Assembly: GCA_036479435.1 (NCBI GenBank)
Contig: JAZGFI010000087.1
Location: 1-21,205, forward strand
Origin: Planctomycetota bacterium
Lineage (GTDB): Bacteria > Planctomycetota > GCA-002687715 > DRQF01
Length of the DNA: 21,205 nucleotides
Reading direction: 5' to 3'
The position numbers and the translations under genes were made by a program. This document shows, one piece after another, positions 2,308-18,926 of this stretch (its first letter is position 1; each line of letters begins with the position of its first letter). The notes below the pieces were generated by a model. It was not told the origin of the DNA. It saw only the letters and a program-made list of their open reading frames with translations, and ran no database searches.

Positions 2308-3378
2308 ATGTCACAGTTGATTAAAGCCCGATTCGTCTTTCCAATTCGCCTGAGTCTTCCTGAGGGCGGTTGGGCGTACAAGCACGACGGTGATCTCACG
2401 ATGATTGGCGTTCGGTCTGGAGCCGGAGAGCTCCGCCTTGTTTTGCTCCCCGAATCCGAACGTTCGAGGAACAAGGAGCGGTTTTGGCTGCGAACCGTGT
2501 TTAGGAGGCACCCTCTCGTCATTGCACGAACCGCGTGTATCAGTCCCGGTCACGACCTGTTACTTGAAGAATTCACGGACGCCGCCTCCTTCTCACAACT
2601 CGATGTTTGCTTCGAAGTTTCTCAGCTAGTCGACCAAAACGACAAGCGTGCGATGGCCAAACTTCGTGATGACGCTTTTGCCCGAGTACAGATATTCGTT
2701 CGTTTCTACCGCCTTGCGGCGAACGAGGTCGACGTGCCGATACCGAACCTTGCGTCGTCCCCGGTTGTTGAACTTGCCGTGGCGGACGACTACAAGATGG
2801 ACGAGGGCGGTGCAGAAGGCGAGTTTCATACTATTTACCGTCAATTCCAGTGGCCACTACCCGCGACGAAAGGACTCCTCAAGCCAAGGATGGATCCGCA
2901 GAGAACTGAGGCATTTGTGAAACACCTGCGATCTGGCAAGGAGCCCGACCTCTATGCGGAACAACTCCTGGAGGCGAAAGAGCTGTCTCGCTTACATGGG
3001 AACCACCGCTTAGCCATCGTAGTAGCCCAAGGCGCGTTCGAGTCTTTTTTCCAAAGAAGACTTCTCGAAGAATGTGAAGCCCGAGGCATCAACAACCTTT
3101 CCGCTTGAAACGGCGAAAACAAGCCAGCGAGAGAAGTAGTGGCCCGGGGAAGTCTACGTCAAGACTTGCTTCAGAGAATCAGTAAGGAACTTGCTGGATG
3201 CAGCGTGGTGGACTGCAACGAGCATCAAGCTTGGTACACCAACGCTTACAAAATCCGAAACGACATTATTCACGGTGGAAGAACCGATATCACAGCGGAC
3301 AACGCACGGTCGGCATTTGAGTCGGTCCTCGATTACGTGAACTGGCTTGATCGTCAATTCGTACGATCGAGAGCGTGA
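2308..3378 (+). pseudogene. HEPN-domain protein (ApeA-like architecture, putative RNase/defence effector) interrupted by an in-frame TGA at 3106-3108
   Basis: ORFs 2308-3108 and 3139-3378 are in the same frame, separated only by TGA plus 10 sense codons. The first part ends with the HEPN-like helix RLAIVVAQGAFE. The second part carries RNDIIH (Rx4H, 3256-3273) followed by a helix. Joined length is ~356 aa. Confidence 0.65.
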
Positions 3379-3646: not shown

Positions 3647-3913
3647 ATGAACATCTCTCTGACCCCAAAGCTAAAACGATACGTCGAAGAGAAACTTGAA
3701 TCCGGAGACTATCGCTCCGCCAGTGAGGTCATTCGCGAGGGGCTAAGGCTCCTTTTGGAGAGGGACCGAATTCGCAATCTGCGCCTCGAAGAACTTCGCA
3801 GCGAAATCAAGATCGGCCTCGATGAACTCGACCGTGGCGAGGGCATCCCGGGCGACGTGGTGTTCGAGGAAATCCGAGAGCGACTTGCGAAACGCAAGCG
3901 CGAGGGGAAGTGA
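3647..3913 (+). CDS. parD: Type II TA antitoxin, ParD family (ribbon-helix-helix, CC2985-like)
   Basis: MNISLTPKLKRYVEEKLESGDYRSASEVIREGLRLL...LRSEIKIGLDELDRG is the family signature. 88 aa from ATG 3647. Overlaps the toxin by GTGA. Confidence 0.92.
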   Translation: MNISLTPKLKRYVEEKLESGDYRSASEVIREGLRLLLERDRIRNLRLEELRSEIKIGLDELDRGEGIPGDVVFEEIRERLAKRKREGK

Positions 3914-4212
3914 AAGGATTCGAGCTCTCCCCCGCCGCCAAGCGCGACCTTGACGAGATCGTAGATTACATTGCGACAGATTCGATCGACCAGGCCCTTG
4001 AGGTGCTTCGCGTGATCGAAAGCAAGATCATGGGGCTCGTCAAATTTCCAGAAATGGGAAGCAAGCGGCCAGACCTCGTCCCCGGTCAGGATCTGAGATT
4101 TTGGCCAGTCTACTCTTACCTCATCGTCTACCGCCCGCACTCCAAACCACTTGAAGTGGTTCGAGTTATTAGCGGCTACAGAGACCTCGAAGAGTTACTT
4201 GGGGAAGACTGA
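3910..4212 (+). CDS. parE: Type II TA toxin, RelE/ParE family
   Basis: LSPAAKRDLDEIVDYIA..FPEMGSKRPDL..LRFWPVYSYLIVYR..LEVVRVISGYRDL. 100 aa, translationally coupled to parD. Confidence 0.92.
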   Translation: MKGFELSPAAKRDLDEIVDYIATDSIDQALEVLRVIESKIMGLVKFPEMGSKRPDLVPGQDLRFWPVYSYLIVYRPHSKPLEVVRVISGYRDLEELLGED

Positions 4213-4278: not shown

Positions 4279-4971
4279 TTAAACGACGCGGTCGATCAAC
4301 GAACCGATGCCGAAGGTGATGGCCATGGCTAAGGCTCCCCAGAAAGTGACGCGCACGGCGGCGACGAGCATCTTGGCGCCGCCGGCATGAGCTGCCGCAC
4401 ATCCCAGCGCCGCCAAAAACACCAAAGAGCTTGCGGCCACGAAGAGCTGAGCTTGGGCGAAAGGAGCGAAGTAGGCGATGGCAAGGGGGAGGCTTGCTCC
4501 CAAGGTGAAGGTAATCGCCGAAGCCACGGCGGCTAGGAGGGGGCGGGCCGCATGAATGCTCAAAAGACCCAATTCGTCGCGCGCGTGGGCGCCGAGGGCG
4601 TCGTGTTCGGTGAGTTGGGTGGCGACTTCGTGGGCGAGTTTCGGAGTTAGGCCGCGCTCGACGTAGATATTGGCCAACTCCAAGTGCTCCGACTCAGGGT
4701 CGGTTTCCAGCTCAATTCTTTCGCGTTGCAGGTCGGCTTGCTCGAGGTCCGATTGGGAACTGACAGATACGTACTCCCCCGCCGCCATCGACGTGGCGCC
4801 AGCCACAAGTCCGGCAAAGCCTGCGATCAGGATCGACTCGTTGGAAGATCCGGCCGCCGCAACCCCGATGATGAGGCTTGCGGTAGAGATGATCCCGTCA
4901 TTGGCTCCGAGGACTGCGGCGCGTAGCCAACTGATTCGGTCCGAGAAATGTCGTTCGGGTTGGTGCACCAA
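4279..4971 (-). CDS. VIT1/CCC1 family Fe/Mn transporter
   Basis: WLRAAVLGANDG, AGATSMAAGEYVSVSSQ, ELANIYVERGL, HARDELG. Start placed at TTG 4971 (AAGGA upstream, ~230 aa); the exact start is uncertain. Confidence 0.92.
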   Translation of the reverse strand: MVHQPERHFSDRISWLRAAVLGANDGIISTASLIIGVAAAGSSNESILIAGFAGLVAGATSMAAGEYVSVSSQSDLEQADLQRERIELETDPESEHLELANIYVERGLTPKLAHEVATQLTEHDALGAHARDELGLLSIHAARPLLAAVASAITFTLGASLPLAIAYFAPFAQAQLFVAASSLVFLAALGCAAAHAGGAKMLVAAVRVTFWGALAMAITFGIGSLIDRVV

Positions 4972-5015
4972 GAGAATGTTGTCCTTCTCTGCCGACTCGT
5001 TGTTCAAGTCGGAGT

Positions 5016-5501
5016 TTACGAACTTGAGTGACTGAGTTTCTTCTCGAAACAAACACTACTGGGATCGTCGCGATATTCGCCAAAAGGCTGGATGCGAAAA
5101 TAGCCTCTCGCCTCGTAAAACGCCATGGCCGGGAGCTGACGAAATCCTGTTTCCAAAAGAACATGGGTGTAGCCCATTTGTTGAGCCCGATTCTCAAGAT
5201 CATCTAGCAGGGCCTGCGCGACTCCTTGCCGTCGTGCGTTCAAGGCCACAAAGACCCGGCGCAACTCGACCGCTGTTTGACTCAAACTCCGAAGCGATGC
5301 GCAGCCAACGGCGACCTGTTCGTGATAGGCCAGCACAAAGGCACCTCGAACTGAGACCGGGGGATTGGTCGGCCAAGGATCATCGGCGGCGAAAAGCTCA
5401 GGGTACTGGGCGCGCGCTTCGATGGCCGCTTCGCGAAGGAGCTTGCCGGCGGGTTCTCCCTGGGGGTCGCCATCGCGGATCTCGATGTCATCCGCTTTCA
5501 T
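5016..5501 (-). CDS. GNAT family N-acetyltransferase
   Basis: Acetyl-CoA binding motif VELRRVFVALNARRQGVAQALL, LETGxxQxxAxxFYExxGY, and a C-terminal FGEYRDDPSSVCFEKKL. Confidence 0.88.
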   Translation of the reverse strand: MKADDIEIRDGDPQGEPAGKLLREAAIEARAQYPELFAADDPWPTNPPVSVRGAFVLAYHEQVAVGCASLRSLSQTAVELRRVFVALNARRQGVAQALLDDLENRAQQMGYTHVLLETGFRQLPAMAFYEARGYFRIQPFGEYRDDPSSVCFEKKLSHSSS

Positions 5502-5552: not shown

Positions 5553-7475
5553 TCAGGAATCCTTGGGGCTGCGCACCCAACGGCGGTATTCCAAAAGGAT
5601 GCGATCCATGAGCCCCGCGGGATCGAGACCCAAGGCTCGGAGCAACTGAATGCGGCTGCCGCGCCGGGGTAATTCGTCGGGTAAAGCGATGGGCATGATG
5701 CGGGAACTGTCCAGTCGCTCGAGGGCCGAAGCCTCAAGGGCCGCCGAACCAAAGCCGCCGGCGATCCCGTGCTCTTCAATCGTAAAGAGCAAAGAGTGCT
5801 CGGCCAAAAGTGAAGTGAGAAGCTCCCGATCGAAGGGACGGGCAAAGCGGGCGTTGACCACACTGGCTTCCAGGCCGCGTTCGGCGAGTCCTTCGGCGGC
5901 TTCCATCGCGGGGTAGACCGTCGCACCATAGGCCAAAATCGCCACATCACTGCCTTTTCGCAGCAATTCGCCGCGACCACGGACGAGTTCCGAACGCAGC
6001 GGATAGACTCGATCGGCCTGCGGCAAAAAGGTACGTGGAATGCGAATGGCCTTGGGGCCCGCGTAGGTGCCCGAAAACTCGAGCATCGACTTCAGCTCTT
6101 CTTGGTCCCGCGGCGCCATGAGATCGATCCCGGGCAAAGACCTGAGTTGAGCTAAGTCCTGGACCCCGTGGTAAAGCGTCGCATCGTCATCGACGAGACC
6201 GGCGTAAACCAAGGCCAAGGTGACGGGTAAACCGCGCAGCAAGATCTCTTGAAAAACCTGATCGAGGCCACGGGCCAAAAAAGCGGCGGGCATGACCACC
6301 AAAGGTCGACGGCCTTCGTGAGCCAGACCGGCGGCGAAGGCAAGGCCGTGCTGTTCACTAACGCCAATGTCAAAAAGACGCTGCGGAAAACGCTCACGAA
6401 AATCGCGCGTGAAGGCGCGCAAACTGTCGAATTCAGGTCGCGCCATGACCACGACTGAAAAGCTCTCGTCGTGTTCGGCTTGATCGAGGACACACTCCGC
6501 AAAAACATCCGTCCATCTTTGCTCGCCCTGGATCTCAAACTCGGTTTCTGAATGGAAGTGTTGGAGGCCGCTCTCGTCCTCGGTGATCTCGATGCGCGGG
6601 GCTTTGACGGCCGGGTTGGCGGCAGCGGTCGGGCGACTTGTGACGACATGCAACAACTGGAAGCCATTTTGGCGCTTGATCTCCGCCAACAACTTCGTGA
6701 GGTGCGCGATATTGTGACCATCGACGGGGCCGAAATAACGCGGGCCGAGCTTCTCGAAAGTGTAGCCCGGCACGAGCGCACGAGCGACGACGTCTTTCAT
6801 CTGCTCGGCGGTGCGTTCGAGCGTCTCACCGATAAAGGGAAGCGCCTGTATCAACTTCTGAGCGTCGCGCTTGAAGTCATTGTAGGGTTTTCCGACCCGC
6901 AGTTTTGAGAGGTACTCCCCCATCGAACCCACGATCTTCGAGATGGACATTTCGTTGTCGTTGAGGACCACCAAGACATCTTGATCGAGGAAGTCGCCAG
7001 AATTTAGAGCTTCCAGAGCCACCCCGGTAATAACCGCACCGTCGCCAATAACCGCCACGGTCTTGCCCGGCGCCGATCGACCCGCGGCCATGCCCAGTGC
7101 TTTTGAGATCGACGTCCCAGCGTGGGCCGCGAAGAAGTTGTCGTAGGGGGGGATCTCATCGCCGGGAAAGGGAACGGTAATGGAGGGGTCTTCATCGGCA
7201 CCGTCTGGGACCAATTCCAGACCCCGCGTCAACACCAAGTGGGCCGCGCATTGGTAAACCAGATCATAAACCAGGCGGTCGTGCGAAAAATCGAAGGCGT
7301 AGTGCAAAGCCAAAGTGAGATCGGTAATACCCAAAGAGGAACGTAGGTATTCGCCGCGAAGTCCAAAACGCTGGGCGATGACCTCGCGAATCTCGGCCGC
7401 GACCTGAGGCAAGCGCTCGACCGGCAGTTGCCTTAGGTCTCGCGGATTCTTGATGCTCGACAACAGGGTGTTCAC
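5553..7475 (-). CDS. dxs: 1-deoxy-D-xylulose-5-phosphate synthase homologue with a degenerate active site
   Basis: Full-length (~640 aa) three-domain DXS fold: LLSSIKNPRDLRQL, GDGA..EALN, VLNDNEMSI, YFGPVDGHN, DIGVSEQH, VVNARFARPFD, TIEEH..GGFGS. Canonical position after xseA-xseB-ispA. GTG start inferred at 7475. Several catalytic residues are substituted (see findings). Confidence 0.88.
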   Translation of the reverse strand: MNTLLSSIKNPRDLRQLPVERLPQVAAEIREVIAQRFGLRGEYLRSSLGITDLTLALHYAFDFSHDRLVYDLVYQCAAHLVLTRGLELVPDGADEDPSITVPFPGDEIPPYDNFFAAHAGTSISKALGMAAGRSAPGKTVAVIGDGAVITGVALEALNSGDFLDQDVLVVLNDNEMSISKIVGSMGEYLSKLRVGKPYNDFKRDAQKLIQALPFIGETLERTAEQMKDVVARALVPGYTFEKLGPRYFGPVDGHNIAHLTKLLAEIKRQNGFQLLHVVTSRPTAAANPAVKAPRIEITEDESGLQHFHSETEFEIQGEQRWTDVFAECVLDQAEHDESFSVVVMARPEFDSLRAFTRDFRERFPQRLFDIGVSEQHGLAFAAGLAHEGRRPLVVMPAAFLARGLDQVFQEILLRGLPVTLALVYAGLVDDDATLYHGVQDLAQLRSLPGIDLMAPRDQEELKSMLEFSGTYAGPKAIRIPRTFLPQADRVYPLRSELVRGRGELLRKGSDVAILAYGATVYPAMEAAEGLAERGLEASVVNARFARPFDRELLTSLLAEHSLLFTIEEHGIAGGFGSAALEASALERLDSSRIMPIALPDELPRRGSRIQLLRALGLDPAGLMDRILLEYRRWVRSPKDS

Positions 7476-7488
7476 GGCAATGTCTCGA

Positions 7489-8373
7489 TCAACTGATCCT
7501 GGTACAGATAAATTCAGCAAACGCGGACAACTCGCCTTTGCGGTCGTAGGGGGCGATCGCCGCCCTGCCCTTTTCCGCGAGTTCGAGGGCAGTCGTGCGC
7601 GAACGGTCCAATCCGACGCAGGCGGGCCAGGTCAATTTGTTCTGCTCGGCGTCTTTGCCCGCCGTCTTGCCCAGCGTACTGGCATCGCTGGTGAGGTCGA
7701 GGATGTCATCGATTATTTGAAACGACAGGCCGAGTGATTCGCCATAAGTCGTAAAAGCGGCCAGCGTCTCGTCATCAACGCGAGCGGCGATAGCCCCGAT
7801 GCGGACACTCGCGCGAATGAGGGCTCCGGTTTTTCGACGGTGGATCTGCTCGACGGCAGCAAGGTCCGCCTCGGTGCCCATGGACACCATGTCGAGGACT
7901 TGGCCGCCGATCATGCCCTGCACCCCAGCCGCTTCGGCCAACTCTAAGACCAATAGAGCGGCGAGATCGGGGCTTGGGGTCTGTTTGGCGATCAACAAAA
8001 AGGCCGCGTTCGAAAGGGCGTCCCCGGCCAGCACCGCCATCGCCTCGCCGTAGACGACATGATTGGTGGGGCGGCCGCGACGCAGATCATCGTCATCCAT
8101 GCAGGGCAAGTCGTCGTGAATGAGCGAATAGGTGTGGACCATTTCCAAAGCGCAGGCCGCGGGCATCACATCGCCGCGCTCACCCCCGCAGGCCGAAGAC
8201 ACGGCCAAAGCCATGGCGGGACGCAGCCTCTTGCCACCGGCAAGGAGGCTATAGCGCATCGCCTCCACGATCGAAGGAACCGCCGATCCCTGAGCCGGCA
8301 AGTAGTTTTCAAGTGCCGCCTCAATTTCGGGGCGGTAGTGCCGGAGCAAGTCCGTAGCGGGCTCTTGGCTCAT
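7489..8373 (-). CDS. ispA: Farnesyl/geranylgeranyl diphosphate synthase (polyprenyl synthetase)
   Basis: GGKRLRP, first Asp-rich motif HDDLPCMDDDDLRRG, GQxLD, KTGAL, second motif FQIIDDILD, GKTAGKD. ATGA overlap with xseB. Confidence 0.95.
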   Translation of the reverse strand: MSQEPATDLLRHYRPEIEAALENYLPAQGSAVPSIVEAMRYSLLAGGKRLRPAMALAVSSACGGERGDVMPAACALEMVHTYSLIHDDLPCMDDDDLRRGRPTNHVVYGEAMAVLAGDALSNAAFLLIAKQTPSPDLAALLVLELAEAAGVQGMIGGQVLDMVSMGTEADLAAVEQIHRRKTGALIRASVRIGAIAARVDDETLAAFTTYGESLGLSFQIIDDILDLTSDASTLGKTAGKDAEQNKLTWPACVGLDRSRTTALELAEKGRAAIAPYDRKGELSAFAEFICTRIS

Positions 8374-8618
8374 GCCGAGGAGCCCTGGCCGTGCCCGCCA
8401 CGATCCCCATCGGGATCAACGGGTTTTGACCCATCGGCGGTCAGCGCCTCAATCTTCTTCTCCATTTTTGCGAGATGCTCCTGCAACTCCGCCACGAGTT
8501 TCATACCCGATTGATACTGATCGACGGCCTTGTCGAGCTCGAGCTCGCCATCCTCAAGACCGCGCACGATATCTTCGAGCAGAACCATGCGCGCCTCGAA
8601 TCCTGGTTTTTTTGCCAT
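8370..8618 (-). CDS. xseB: Exodeoxyribonuclease VII small subunit
   Basis: FEARMVLLEDIVRGLEDGELELDKAVDQYQSGMKLVAELQEHLAKMEKKIEAL. Located between xseA and ispA. Start at the MAKK ATG. Confidence 0.92.
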   Translation of the reverse strand: MAKKPGFEARMVLLEDIVRGLEDGELELDKAVDQYQSGMKLVAELQEHLAKMEKKIEALTADGSKPVDPDGDRGGHGQGSSA

Positions 8619-8644: not shown

Positions 8645-10114
8645 TCAACCGCCCACTTGGGGATCTGATTCTAACGGGTCCGGCTCGGGCTCAGAAGATG
8701 TGCCCTCGACTCGCGAGCGTATCTCTCCTTTGGCGAAGCGCGTGCGCAAGCGCTGGTGGGGCTGAAGGGTATCGGCGGATCGAATAATCTCGCCCGTTTC
8801 CTCGTCCCGAGTCAGGCTGTAGCCGCGCTCTAGGACGCGTAGGGGCGAAAGGCCCGCCAAGAGCCGCTCGCGCTCCACGAGCGCCACCCTCAAGCTCTCT
8901 ACCCGCCTCTGCAAAGCCGTGGGCATCGCCTGCTCCCAATCCGAAAGCCGTTCGCGCGCTAGCGCAATGCGTTGTTGAGGCAGACGCAGTCCGACGCCCC
9001 GCCGCAAGGCTTCGAGTCTCGCCTGCTCCAAGGCCACGCGTCTTCTCAGAGCTTTCGGCAACGTGAGACGGATCTCATCGAGGCGCTGCACTTTTGATTC
9101 GACCAAACGGCGCGGTTCGCGAAGCGCCCAGCTTTTGCTGTGACCTTGAAGCTGTTGGCGAGCGGATGCCAATCTTGCGGTCACGGTACGGGTGAGGCGA
9201 ATGCGCAACTCGCCCAGGTGCAGTTCGAGGTCGCTTAGCTTGGGAAGAACCATTTCGCCAGCGGCGGTCGGCGTCGCGGCTCGATAGTCGGCAACGAAAT
9301 CCGCGAGGCTAAAGTCAACTTCGTGGCCCACAGCGGAGATGACGGGGATGTGGGAGTCATGTATCGCCTCAACGACGAGGGGCTCGTTGAAAGCCCACAG
9401 GTCTTCGAGGCTTCCCCCGCCCCGCCCCACGATCATAACGTCCACGAGTTGCTCTCGATTGAATCGCTGAATGGCCGCCGCGATTTCGGCCGCCGCCCCC
9501 GGACCTTGGACGATGACATCGGCAATCAGCAACGAAGGTCGCGCAAATCGCGCCGTGATGGTGCTGATCAGATCGCGCACGGCTGCTCCGCGCAACGAGG
9601 TGACAATGCCAATGCGGGCCGGCAAATACGGTAGGGGCTTTTTTAAAGACTCAGCGAACCAACCTTTTGCCTCGTAGTCGGCCTTCAGCTCTCGAAACTT
9701 TCGTTCAAGATCACCTAGGCCAGCAGGCTCCATCGACTCGACGATGAGTTGGTAGCGACCACCCGATTCATAGACCGTCAGACGCCCCCGCACTTGAACT
9801 TGGAGACCGCTTTCGGGCGAAAAACGCAGGCGGCGCGCGGCGTTTCGCCACATCGCGCAACTGATCTGTGCCTTTTCGTCTTTTAGCGTGAAGTAAAGGT
9901 GGCCGCTAGTGGCCGCGCTGAGGTTGGAAATTTCACCCTCGACTAGAAGGTTCCCGAACTCGCGCTCCAAGGTCTTTCGGGCGAGAGCGTTGACCTCGCT
10001 TACCGCGAGTGCCTTTACATTCGAGCCCACGTTTGAAACTGAAGCTGAATCGGAATCAGGCCGAGAACTGGTCTCAGGGTGGTAACCGAAAAGTTTCCGG
10101 CGGCGAGGTTCCAT
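8645..10114 (-). CDS. xseA: Exodeoxyribonuclease VII large subunit
   Basis: VEGEISN, SGHLYFTLKD, IGIVTS..GAAVRD, RGGGSLEDLWAFNE, SAVGHEVDF, RAATPTAAGE, LSPLRVLERGYS. Confidence 0.96.
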   Translation of the reverse strand: MEPRRRKLFGYHPETSSRPDSDSASVSNVGSNVKALAVSEVNALARKTLEREFGNLLVEGEISNLSAATSGHLYFTLKDEKAQISCAMWRNAARRLRFSPESGLQVQVRGRLTVYESGGRYQLIVESMEPAGLGDLERKFRELKADYEAKGWFAESLKKPLPYLPARIGIVTSLRGAAVRDLISTITARFARPSLLIADVIVQGPGAAAEIAAAIQRFNREQLVDVMIVGRGGGSLEDLWAFNEPLVVEAIHDSHIPVISAVGHEVDFSLADFVADYRAATPTAAGEMVLPKLSDLELHLGELRIRLTRTVTARLASARQQLQGHSKSWALREPRRLVESKVQRLDEIRLTLPKALRRRVALEQARLEALRRGVGLRLPQQRIALARERLSDWEQAMPTALQRRVESLRVALVERERLLAGLSPLRVLERGYSLTRDEETGEIIRSADTLQPHQRLRTRFAKGEIRSRVEGTSSEPEPDPLESDPQVGG

Positions 10115-10128
10115 GGTCCCATCAATTC

Positions 10129-11592
10129 TCAGTTGACGTCGATGTAGGAATCGCGGCGAGCGAGCCAGGCTTCACCGTTCAAGACCAAAACCGTGATGCG
10201 CAGCTTGCCCTTATAAAACGGATTCATCTTCCCGAGTCCGCGTAGCGCCTGCATCCATCTTTTGACTTTGCCGTCCTCAAAGAGCAATTCGACGATGTCG
10301 CCGCGGGGCGAAACTGAAAAGTGGAGGTGCTTGGCTTCAACGTGCTTGATCACACCTCGGCCCGGGTTTGAGACCGTGAAGACCACGTCTTTCAGATGGT
10401 CTTGAAGAACTTCGCCGATGCTCACGACGCGAAAAATACTCTGCTCACGCGTCTTTCCCAAAAGGCGATTCAGTTCGGCCTTCACGACACCAGGATCACG
10501 TTGGCCGGTGGCAACCGCGGTTCTTTTTTCCTCTTCCCGTCGCTGGCGAAGCGTCTCGGCGACGGCGTCTTGAACCCCGTCAACGATCTTCGGAGGCTTG
10601 GGTCGGCTGGTTTCGCTAAGGAACTTGCTGCCTTCTTGTTTCAGGCGAGTCAAGATGTCGTCGTTCAGACGATTCGCGCGTGCCTCGGCGGTCTCGGCGC
10701 GCCGCAAGTAGTCCGTAACCTCGCGGTCCATCGTGGCCATCTTCGAACGCAGTTCCGAGATCGTCGTCTCGTCTTCAGATTTTTTCCCGCGCAGCCGTCT
10801 GAGCTCAGCATCGTCGGCGCCCTGCCCAGACTCCAAGCGATCAAGATCGCCCTGCATGTCGAGGATTTTGGTTTTTCGAGCCTGAAGATCACCGCGCAGT
10901 TCGCTCAATTCGCGGTTTTTGTCATCGCGTTCTTCCCGCGCCTCTTTCCACAGTCTTTCGTACTTGGGAAGGACACCGCCTTCAATTCCCGCCAGACGTC
11001 GCGACAGCTCTTCAGATCCCTCTCGACCGTCGTCTCGGCGGGCATCGAAGGCCTCTTTCATGAAGAAACCCGTGACGCCCAAGAGCGCAATGCCCAACAC
11101 GGCGCCCGCAATCAGCAAGGTCCTTTTGCCGCGGCGTTCCCGACGCAGCTCGTCTAGCAACTCGCTCTGTGTGGCTCGTACGCCCTTGAAGGTGTCATTG
11201 AGGGCTTCGGTTGAATTGAGCATCAACTCGCGCTTGCTTTCGTCTTCGATCGACGACTGCATCCGCGCTTGCGTTTGATGGACTTGATTGAGGATCTCGG
11301 CTTGAACTGCGAAGGCCTTAGCGAGTTCTCCAAGTGGCCGCGCAATGGCGCTGGCGGCCTCGCGGTCGACGGCGCCTTCTCGGGCATCGACAATCAGTTG
11401 TGCCATCTGGCCGGGCTCGACGCTCGTCGCGGGACTGAATTCGGCGTCGTGCTTAGGCTCATGCTCGTGCTTGGTGGCCGCCGTGTCCTTGCGCGGGGAC
11501 GCATCTCCAGCTCGTTTGTTTGGCTGACGTTTGTTGAGCCGAAAACGGCCTGAATTCGGTCCGCTTTCGGAATCTGGGGTTTTTTTGCTCAC
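10129..11592 (-). CDS. Hypothetical single-pass membrane protein with long coiled coils and a beta-rich C-terminal domain
   Basis: 487-aa ORF tightly packed in the gene run (3-nt and 14-nt gaps). Hydrophobic segment LLIAGAVLGIALLGVTGFFM after a basic RRERRGKR, with E/R/K/L-rich heptad-like stretches on both sides. Confidence 0.8.
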   Translation of the reverse strand: MSKKTPDSESGPNSGRFRLNKRQPNKRAGDASPRKDTAATKHEHEPKHDAEFSPATSVEPGQMAQLIVDAREGAVDREAASAIARPLGELAKAFAVQAEILNQVHQTQARMQSSIEDESKRELMLNSTEALNDTFKGVRATQSELLDELRRERRGKRTLLIAGAVLGIALLGVTGFFMKEAFDARRDDGREGSEELSRRLAGIEGGVLPKYERLWKEAREERDDKNRELSELRGDLQARKTKILDMQGDLDRLESGQGADDAELRRLRGKKSEDETTISELRSKMATMDREVTDYLRRAETAEARANRLNDDILTRLKQEGSKFLSETSRPKPPKIVDGVQDAVAETLRQRREEEKRTAVATGQRDPGVVKAELNRLLGKTREQSIFRVVSIGEVLQDHLKDVVFTVSNPGRGVIKHVEAKHLHFSVSPRGDIVELLFEDGKVKRWMQALRGLGKMNPFYKGKLRITVLVLNGEAWLARRDSYIDVN

Positions 11593-11595
11593 AGC

Positions 11596-12282
11596 TCAGT
11601 TTCCATTACGGGCGGGCGAAGACTCGGCCGGCGGCTCGCCCAGTTCTTGACGCAGCAAGCGCGCCAATCTTCCCTTTGGTTTCAAATCGTAGGCCTTGAT
11701 GTCCTCACCATAAACCCAGCCCGGCGACAAGAGCGGTCCGTCGGCTCCGAACCGAAGTGGAGACAAACCCCTAAGCGAAGTCCCCGCCGGAACGGCGACG
11801 GCAAGTCGCAACATCGTCCCCGGGGCCACTTCGCGCTTGGGAAGCGACCAAATTTGAACTTCGTGGCGAAAATAGGCTGGCAATCGGGCCGGTGCCTGCG
11901 CCAATAGCGACGCAATGTCGGGCGCATCCCAGTCTGCGATCTCTTCGTTTAGCAACTTGGCCTCGCCGACGAGAGGCAGGGGCAATGGCGCGCTACCGTG
12001 GTTCACGGCCCAAAGCATCGCGTAGCGATAGCGTCCTTGAGTACCCAAGCGGTCGGACCACACTTTCGTATTGAATTGGTCACGCTCGGTTTCCAAGTAG
12101 AACGGCCGCAGCAAGATCTCGAGTTCGCCTTGTTCTCCGTGAAGCACTGCCACGAGCCGGGGAGCCCTTGCAATGTCGGGAGAATGGGGTTCGCCCGGTT
12201 CAGGGGGCGCGAACTGATCGACGACCAAAAAAGCCACGACCGCCAAGGCCGCGATCGTGGCTGCGATGACCGCGACCCTCAT
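11596..12282 (-). CDS. Hypothetical protein with N-terminal membrane anchor/signal and a probable exported beta-rich domain
   Basis: N-terminus MRVAVIAATIAALAVVAFLVV. ATGA overlap with the DUF2062 gene, 3 nt before the next gene. Confidence 0.75.
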   Translation of the reverse strand: MRVAVIAATIAALAVVAFLVVDQFAPPEPGEPHSPDIARAPRLVAVLHGEQGELEILLRPFYLETERDQFNTKVWSDRLGTQGRYRYAMLWAVNHGSAPLPLPLVGEAKLLNEEIADWDAPDIASLLAQAPARLPAYFRHEVQIWSLPKREVAPGTMLRLAVAVPAGTSLRGLSPLRFGADGPLLSPGWVYGEDIKAYDLKPKGRLARLLRQELGEPPAESSPARNGN

Positions 12283-18766: not shown

Positions 18767-18841
18767 TGACCCCGCGGGGATTTGAACCCCGGTTGCCAGG
18801 ATGAAAACCTGGTGTCCTGGACCTGACTAGACGACGGGGCC
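18767..18841 (-). tRNA. tRNA-Glu (TTC)
   Basis: GGCCCCGTCGTCTAGTCAGGTCCAGGACACCAGGTTTTCATCCTGGCAACCGGGGTTCAAATCCCCGCGGGGTCA. Anticodon arm CCAGG-TT TTC AT-CCTGG, T-loop GGTTCAAATCC. Confidence 0.96.
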
Positions 18842-18853
18842 GTCATTTTTTAG

Positions 18854-18926
18854 TGAGGACAGAAGGACTCGAACCTTCGACCCGCTCCTTAAAAGGGAGC
18901 TGCTCTGCCGACTGAGCTATGTCCCC
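18854..18926 (-). tRNA. tRNA-Lys (TTT)
   Basis: GGGGACATAGCTCAGTCGGCAGAGCAGCTCCCTTTTAAGGAGCGGGTCGAAGGTTCGAGTCCTTCTGTCCTCA. Anticodon arm GCTCC-CT TTT AA-GGAGC. Confidence 0.96.

Follow-up and report, generated by a model that had tools for sequence, protein, structure and literature searches.

Why would a bacterium maintain a 1-deoxy-D-xylulose 5-phosphate (DXP) synthase, DXS, with a rewritten active site? DXS is the rate-limiting enzyme of the methylerythritol phosphate (MEP) pathway, serves as a target for antibiotics, and forms a bottleneck when terpenoids are engineered. The question is raised by 21,205 nucleotides of a Planctomycetota genome (contig JAZGFI010000087.1 of assembly GCA_036479435.1, positions 1 to 21,205; hereafter the window), in which the minus strand encodes at 5553-7475, from a GTG start, a 640 amino acid protein with the Pfam domains DXP_synthase_N, Transket_pyr and Transketolase_C, here named DxsA. 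Its sequence suggests that DxsA is probably a genuine, maintained, non-catalytic member of the DXS family, accompanied in the same cell by a second, ordinary-looking DXS, named DxsB.

Catalytic positions of DxsA and its clade

The initial annotation of the window had read this gene by eye as an intact DXS homologue with a rewritten active site, and formal alignment with E. coli DXS (PDB 2o1s; NP_414954), the residue numbers of which are used throughout, agrees. The reading frame is open from end to end, without stops. Two public assemblies of one sample cover the whole window with no gaps and no differing letters, but as they may be the window's own source, their agreement argues only against a copying error. 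Both the three-domain architecture and the fold of DXS are present: in addition to the Pfam matches, an AlphaFold2 model built from an 82-sequence alignment has the DXS fold, with a predicted local distance difference test score (pLDDT) of 87, and its top Foldseek matches are all DXS, with a query-normalised template modelling score of ~0.73. The named homologues are proteins from Planctomycetota metagenome-assembled genomes.

DxsA differs from canonical DXS at eight of 14 key positions. Formal alignment confirmed H49Y (Tyr43 of DxsA), H80Y (Tyr74) and H431Y, with TAC codons at 7347-7349, 7254-7256 and 6171-6173 respectively, all features of the gene being on the minus strand. Equally confirmed were R420Y (6204-6206), which with H431Y places the changes at the glyceraldehyde 3-phosphate (GAP) site within 6171-6206, and Y392P (6288-6290), which lies between the retained E370 (6354-6356) and R398 (6270-6272) in the segment 6270-6356. 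F395, D427 and R478 are also kept, as is the GDG...N motif for Mg and diphosphate (G144-D145-G146 to N174 of DxsA, 6954-7046), including D152, G153 and N181. The alignment added K284R, M346R and I368V, and the loss of Y83 and K86. These losses are not attributable to chance, because H49, H80, K284, H299, M346, R420, D427 and H431 are each present in 126/126 canonical comparison sequences, comprising 16 of DxsB type, 19 of the single-copy type from the host's order (order-type), and 91 from other canonical clusters (60 search matches plus every third of P0031-P0121). Position 392 is Phe in 18/19 clusters of the order's single-copy canonical enzymes, and Tyr in DxsB.

The altered clade comprises 20 protein clusters (P0002-P0021, including DxsA) that are 45-86% identical. 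The pattern of altered positions is shared across these clusters; the exception is H80Y, which is nearly private to DxsA, His being retained in 18/20. Within the clade H49 and R99 each survive in 1/20 clusters, H299 in at most 1/20, H431 in 2/20, and Y392, R420 and M346 in none, while F395, D427 and R478, all present in DxsA, are each found in 4/20. By contrast, S52, D152, G153, E162, N181, E370, H372 and R398 are present in 20/20, such that the GDG...N motif and the glutamate that activates thiamine diphosphate (ThDP), E370, are universal in the clade, and H122 is present in 19/20. Some replacements are themselves conserved (Y49 and P392 in 17/20, R284 in 20/20).

Set against the literature, the residues lost in the clade are the pyruvate-adduct network H431-D427-R99-H49-H299 (bioRxiv 10.1101/2025.10.24.684457) and the ligands of the GAP phosphate (PMC9068908), with the diphosphate and Mg ligands (PMC10504544) among those kept. 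In DxsA itself, D427 is the only member of the network that is securely present, and the GAP-phosphate site Y392/R420/R478 reads P, Y, R, and so is not intact. The segment around H299 had been described as replaced: the KGxG and H299 motifs are indeed gone from DxsA, but the H299 column is unreliable, as one alignment places a DxsA His there and three do not. The two lid loops have also degenerated. That carrying R99 (E. coli ~91-118; 7143-7226, boundaries approximate) has a mean identity of 30% in the clade, against 71% and 83% in two active groups, and the fork/spoon lid that follows K284R (6522-6635, end approximate) is 25% identical; the corresponding range for both lids in the active groups is 64-83%, and the whole altered protein averages 55%. 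DxsA therefore resembles canonical DXS in its three-domain fold, length, GDG...N motif, E370 and R398, and in the xseB-ispA-dxs gene order shared with E. coli, but differs in lacking the H49/R99/H299/H431 network, Y392, R420 and M346. It also scores below the cut-offs of the dxs equivalog families TIGR00204 (457.9 against 465.95) and NF003933 (374.9 against 395), as do six of seven further clade members, with P0012 just above.

Such a pattern could in principle reflect a change of reaction rather than its loss. An active ThDP enzyme acting on a new, non-phosphorylated substrate, with Y49, P392, Y420 and Y431 forming a hydrophobic pocket, would account for the retention of the cofactor-activating E370, R398, H122 and H80 and for the conserved replacements at 49, 392 and 284, and it is the retained E370 that keeps this reading alive. 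Y49 and Y431 also recur in a second degenerate group described below, but a His-to-Tyr change is a single transition, making the recurrence weak evidence. Nevertheless, with new chemistry one would expect a distinct set of residues to have become fixed, whereas positions 420, 427, 431 and 478 each take at least five different residues in the 20 orthologues (Y, W, M, H, L, Q or A at 420; Y, D, A, H, F, R or E at 431). In addition, the lids are poorly conserved, M346 and F395 have been lost in the clade and H80 also in DxsA, and no pathway gene accompanies DxsA. Hence an enzyme with another acceptor, one suggestion of the initial annotation, is weakened to an unlikely explanation, and its pseudoenzyme suggestion is favoured. 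A slow DXS with residual activity is less likely still, to the point of being very improbable. Single mutants of the Deinococcus radiodurans enzyme do remain partly active, H434A and D430A being mild and H82A and H304A leaving 2-12% of activity, although R423A leaves ~0.1% of kcat/Km (PMC5851014), and P0012, which exceeds the dxs cut-offs, retains H49. However, in DxsA eight key positions have changed together, and neither the GAP-phosphate site nor the pyruvate-adduct network has been spared.

Maintenance, ancestry and the second dxs

The altered orthologue adjoins ispA in 9/9 genomes of this Planctomycetota family, the eight relatives of DxsA being 56-70% identical to it. By the Nei-Gojobori method, implemented in our own script, the ratio of nonsynonymous to synonymous substitution rates (dN/dS) for DxsA was 0.04, 0.17, 0.16 and 0.22 in the 4/8 pairs with finite dS, dS being saturated in the other four at 56-87% amino acid identity. 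These values are similar to those of DxsB (0.07-0.24; 4/7 pairs finite) and ispA (0.03-0.21; 5/8 pairs finite). As they are far below one, decay of a redundant gene is in practice excluded, and the view that the protein is maintained was upheld. The long stem branch of the clade (0.59), and the yet greater losses in P0021, within the clade, and P0348, an unrelated degenerate protein, are what slow decay would predict; against this, the frames are open in 9/9 genomes, 20 clusters persist at 45-86% identity, and the losses are concentrated on catalytic positions, making it the least probable of the explanations considered. DxsA thus combines lost catalytic residues with an intact fold and purifying selection, as expected of a pseudoenzyme.

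It had been predicted that such a host would need either a second dxs or the mevalonate pathway, and the former was found. The 92% complete host genome (G000) contains one other full-length dxs, DxsB (G000:C249:21121-22986), which is 39% identical to DxsA, has every catalytic residue and scores 593 on TIGR00204. It lies behind ispH and beside the gene for squalene-hopene cyclase. The scan for further MEP genes recovered dxr, ispD, ispE, ispF, ispG and ispH, as well as thiG and pdxJ, and rescue by the mevalonate pathway was rejected, as there was no match to 3-hydroxy-3-methylglutaryl coenzyme A reductase in this 92% complete genome. The cell therefore depends on DXP, and an ordinary-looking enzyme is there to make it. 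The hopanoid cluster itself (G000:C249:16927-22986) comprises a phosphorylase-family gene, the cyclase gene (shc), a divergent ispH and the canonical short-loop dxs; a second ispH-family gene is found at G000:C299:11537-12355, and G011 has the same shc/ispH arrangement without dxs behind ispH.

DxsB is full length in 7/9 family genomes, with G008 losing part of it at a contig boundary and G007 having no more than 119 N-terminal codons. In the latter (G007:C387; positions 409-765 of locus L040) dxsB ends after ~119 codons and the frame continues into a repeat protein unrelated to it, with the remainder not being found in this 84% complete assembly; this break is probably a misassembly. A 1748-codon frame containing DxsB in G003 was considered as a fusion and rejected, because ispH and shc are encoded over the same stretch in other frames and the long frame is an artefact of high GC content. 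Among the other 14 genomes of the order, ten have a single canonical, full-loop dxs at the ispA locus and four have no dxs match (G013, G019, G021 and G022, from two genera, three of which also lack an ispH match). In a sample of 131 genomes from the phylum, two full-length dxs matches were found only in the two family members, with G106 having a partial second match that contains a stop. Protein searches yielded the 20 altered-type clusters and 16 full-length DxsB-type clusters, excluding the fragment P0150, and a search of genome contigs for related loci returned two, neither from the altered clade.

A careful tree (29 rows, three variable loops removed, no plant sequences) grouped the altered clade with both DxsB and the enzymes of the order at 100/99, and within this group placed it with the single-copy enzymes of the order, leaving DxsB outside, at 94/90, a node that was not starred; a quick tree of 77 rows left the same node open. 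From this placement and the shared ispA locus, the altered gene is the positional and probable true orthologue of the order's dxs, and DxsB probably an older paralogue. The alternative of a duplication at the base of the family, with DxsA and DxsB as sisters, is unsupported, as the careful tree, to which no approximately unbiased test was applied, joins DxsA to the single-copy enzymes.

The helical loop and candidate functions

DxsA residues 190-237 (6765-6908), equivalent to residues ~197-240 of E. coli DXS, begin directly behind the Mg-binding Asn and are modelled, with low confidence (pLDDT ~53-72), as a hairpin of two amphipathic helices, the hydrophobic moment of which (~0.6) is similar to that of other DxsA surface helices. 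Accounts of other DXS enzymes give this loop as disordered and weakly conserved, and as a segment whose deletion leaves activity intact (PMC9068908, PMC10504544). Within the DxsA clade, however, it is among the most conserved parts of the protein, at 72% identity between flanks of 85% and 75%, compared with 55% overall, whereas it falls below the average of the whole protein in both DxsB (44% against 67%) and the order's single-copy enzymes (56% against 71%). The span from N181 to G247 is 71 residues in 20/20 altered sequences, 71-72 in 19/19 order-type sequences and 67-78 in 91/91 other canonical sequences, but 46-49 in 16/16 DxsB sequences, in which the loop is ~24 residues shorter. The complementary pattern, with the altered clade retaining a loop that its canonical partner copies have shortened, is a new observation that does not figure in the initial annotation. 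[quoted passage not shown]

One account of this pattern, which we favour tentatively, is that DxsA serves DxsB as a regulatory subunit, a module without catalysis that binds a diphosphate and works by way of its loop. There would then be a division of labour, in which the short-loop DxsB of the hopanoid cluster makes DXP, thereby having freed the ancestral, ispA-linked DxsA to lose pyruvate and GAP handling and be kept for a second, non-catalytic job. Firstly, DxsA would fold as DXS, as modelled. Secondly, its conserved site would bind Mg and a diphosphate ligand, either ThDP or a prenyl diphosphate. Thirdly, this ligand may order the diphosphate loop and the hairpin behind it, by analogy with P. 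aeruginosa DXS, in which the segment behind the Mg-binding Asn changes conformation upon ThDP binding (PMC10504544). Fourthly, the DXS dimer surface might join DxsA to DxsB, so that the loop missing from DxsB would be provided in trans and DxsA would set how much DXP synthase there is or how active it is. [quoted passage not shown]

Several observations weigh against this account. Of the four interface residues predicted by docking to bind IPP and DMAPP (H122, R398, Q397 and F435; PMC10203381), the latter two are present in only 9/20 and 0/20 altered clusters, and with F395 in 4/20 and M346 in 0/20, ThDP binding by DxsA is uncertain. The two genes are unlinked and their products only ~40% identical; the nine family genomes are kin; and the co-occurrence of DxsA and DxsB says nothing on binding, as the requirement for DXP imposes it. 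Furthermore, a short-loop canonical DXS occurs alone in G073 and G091, with no altered paralogue detected at E <= 1e-70, a threshold that a paralogue with greater degeneration might fail to reach. As loop-truncated DXS is also active (PMC9068908, PMC10504544), DxsB probably works alone, and an obligate heterodimer, in which DxsB needs the loop of DxsA, is unsupported. The loop should not be over-read either, being shortened in 9/150 representatives of the wider family.

The same representatives bear on whether such proteins have arisen elsewhere. A profile search of representatives at 50% identity gave 31,401 matches, the best 150 of which included seven with at least five of the 14 key positions changed, two in the altered clade and five outside it, all five of the latter having a full-length loop. 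One of these lineages forms a second degenerate group (P0310, P0357, which is MGM0588086.1, and P0361; source label Bacteroidota), in which P0310 and P0361 are 68% identical overall and 96% in the loop. Their nearest named canonical relatives are from the Balneolaceae, at ~45% identity, whereas P0310 is 31% identical to DxsA. This group has H49Y and H431Y, has lost R99, H299, M346, Y392, R420, D427 and R478, and keeps S52, H80, H122, D152, N181, K284, E370 and R398. Hence this pair apparently reached nearly the same set of kept and lost residues independently of the DxsA clade, an independence that is judged from identity levels rather than a tree. Its constraint is uneven, with residues 146-283 being 92-100% identical and 446-618 only 44%, the latter being a poor fit with a conserved dimer partner in that pair and so a further point against pairing with DxsB. 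Four other degenerate DXS-like proteins among the best 150 (P0348, P0356, P0276 and P0275) have a full-length loop, three having lost E370; the cluster of P0276 is labelled Nitrospinota/Tectimicrobiota, and a metagenome scan with P0348 gave one weak, partial match. P0220, P0240 and P0292 have partial changes, such as R99K with H431Q, and are perhaps another subfamily.

These data can also be read as describing a non-catalytic DxsA homodimer that serves as a diphosphate-gated adaptor or sensor, the hairpin of which binds another protein or the membrane, single-copy DXS doing the same job alongside catalysis. We regard this as only slightly less likely than the partnership with DxsB. It accords with the amphipathic hairpin, albeit with a moment like that of other surface helices, with the tighter constraint on that hairpin, which is 72% identical in DxsA against 56% in the single-copy enzymes of the order, and with a C-terminal helix (5571-5621) in which the clade has its own invariant residues (D624, Y630, R631 and R635). 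It would also explain the constraint on residues 146-283 rather than 446-618 in the Balneolaceae-related pair, the higher conservation of the loop (88-92%) than of the whole protein (76-79%) in canonical Balneolaceae enzymes, and the full-length loop of all five other degenerate proteins. However, no candidate partner gene is specific to DxsA, as ispA, xseAB and DUF58 flank canonical enzymes too, and the loop's shortening in nine of 150 representatives means that the job is not universal.

A broader proposal, which we rate as rather unlikely, would join these strands. The second function of DXS would be a switch made of the Mg-diphosphate site and the hairpin, gated by ThDP or prenyl diphosphates, which split off independently into dead paralogues in several bacterial lineages; in this family, it would have come to regulate a DXS heterodimer as one of its two subunits, controlling in trans the loop-less, hopanoid-feeding enzyme, possibly with the ThDP and E370 of the blind subunit acting across the dimer. 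For DXS, this last element is speculation by analogy with the 'proton wire' reportedly described for other ThDP enzymes by Frank et al. in 2004.

Surrounding genes and wider significance

The DxsA gene begins 13 bases past ispA, encoding farnesyl diphosphate synthase (7489-8373, minus strand; NF045485 above cut-off), in a run xseA-xseB-ispA-dxs with xseB at 8370-8618 (PF02609) and xseA at 8645-10114 (PF02601), both also on the minus strand. The neighbours ispA, xseAB and DUF58 also flank the canonical dxs of the order; the downstream DUF58 gene was therefore rejected as a partner specific to DxsA. Behind dxs in the window are GNAT and VIT1-family genes (4279-5501), and DUF58 occupies this place in 12/12 other loci examined. 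Upstream of xseA, two open reading frames (ORFs) of 487 and 228 amino acids (10129-12282, minus strand) have no Pfam match, and homologues lie in the same place in 9/12 and 4/12 related loci. On the plus strand, a 266 amino acid ORF without a Pfam match (2308-3108) is closely followed by one of 79 amino acids (3139-3378), possibly as one interrupted gene, and by eye the gene pair at ~3650-4212 resembles a ParD/ParE-type antitoxin-toxin module. Genes for tRNA-Lys and tRNA-Glu lie at 18767-18926 on the minus strand, beside genes that we take by eye to resemble tsf, pyrH and frr.

The closest parallel is with the plant class-3 DXS-like proteins, such as AtDXS3 and SlDXS3, which are likewise intact paralogues retained beside active copies, and which fail to complement E. 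coli (PMC10675008). These serve as a precedent for the concept by analogy. DxsA differs in being bacterial and in grouping with planctomycete enzymes, at 100/99 in a tree without plant sequences. Moreover, class-3 proteins are reported to lack the ThDP site (PMC10675008, citing de Luna-Valdez 2021), whereas both the diphosphate site and E370 persist in the DxsA clade, where F395, M346 and I368 alone are degenerate among the ThDP-binding residues. No report of a bacterial non-catalytic DXS was found in the open PubMed Central and bioRxiv literature, as judged mostly from listings and with subscription journals outside this coverage, and PMC11300867, PMC13001223 and PMC10663253 added nothing on the subject. 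DxsA would be a bacterial counterpart to the unexplained plant proteins.

The named members of the clade carry the label DXP synthase, or that of a protein with its N-terminal domain, which would be a mis-annotation if they are indeed non-catalytic. Crystallographers delete the 197-240 loop of DXS as disordered and unconserved (PMC9068908, PMC10504544). With a natural pair of proteins, one of which keeps the loop and the other catalysis, both the function of this loop and the debated IPP/DMAPP feedback site become testable. The retention of an altered paralogue beside a canonical enzyme suggests that DXS may have a second, non-catalytic job.

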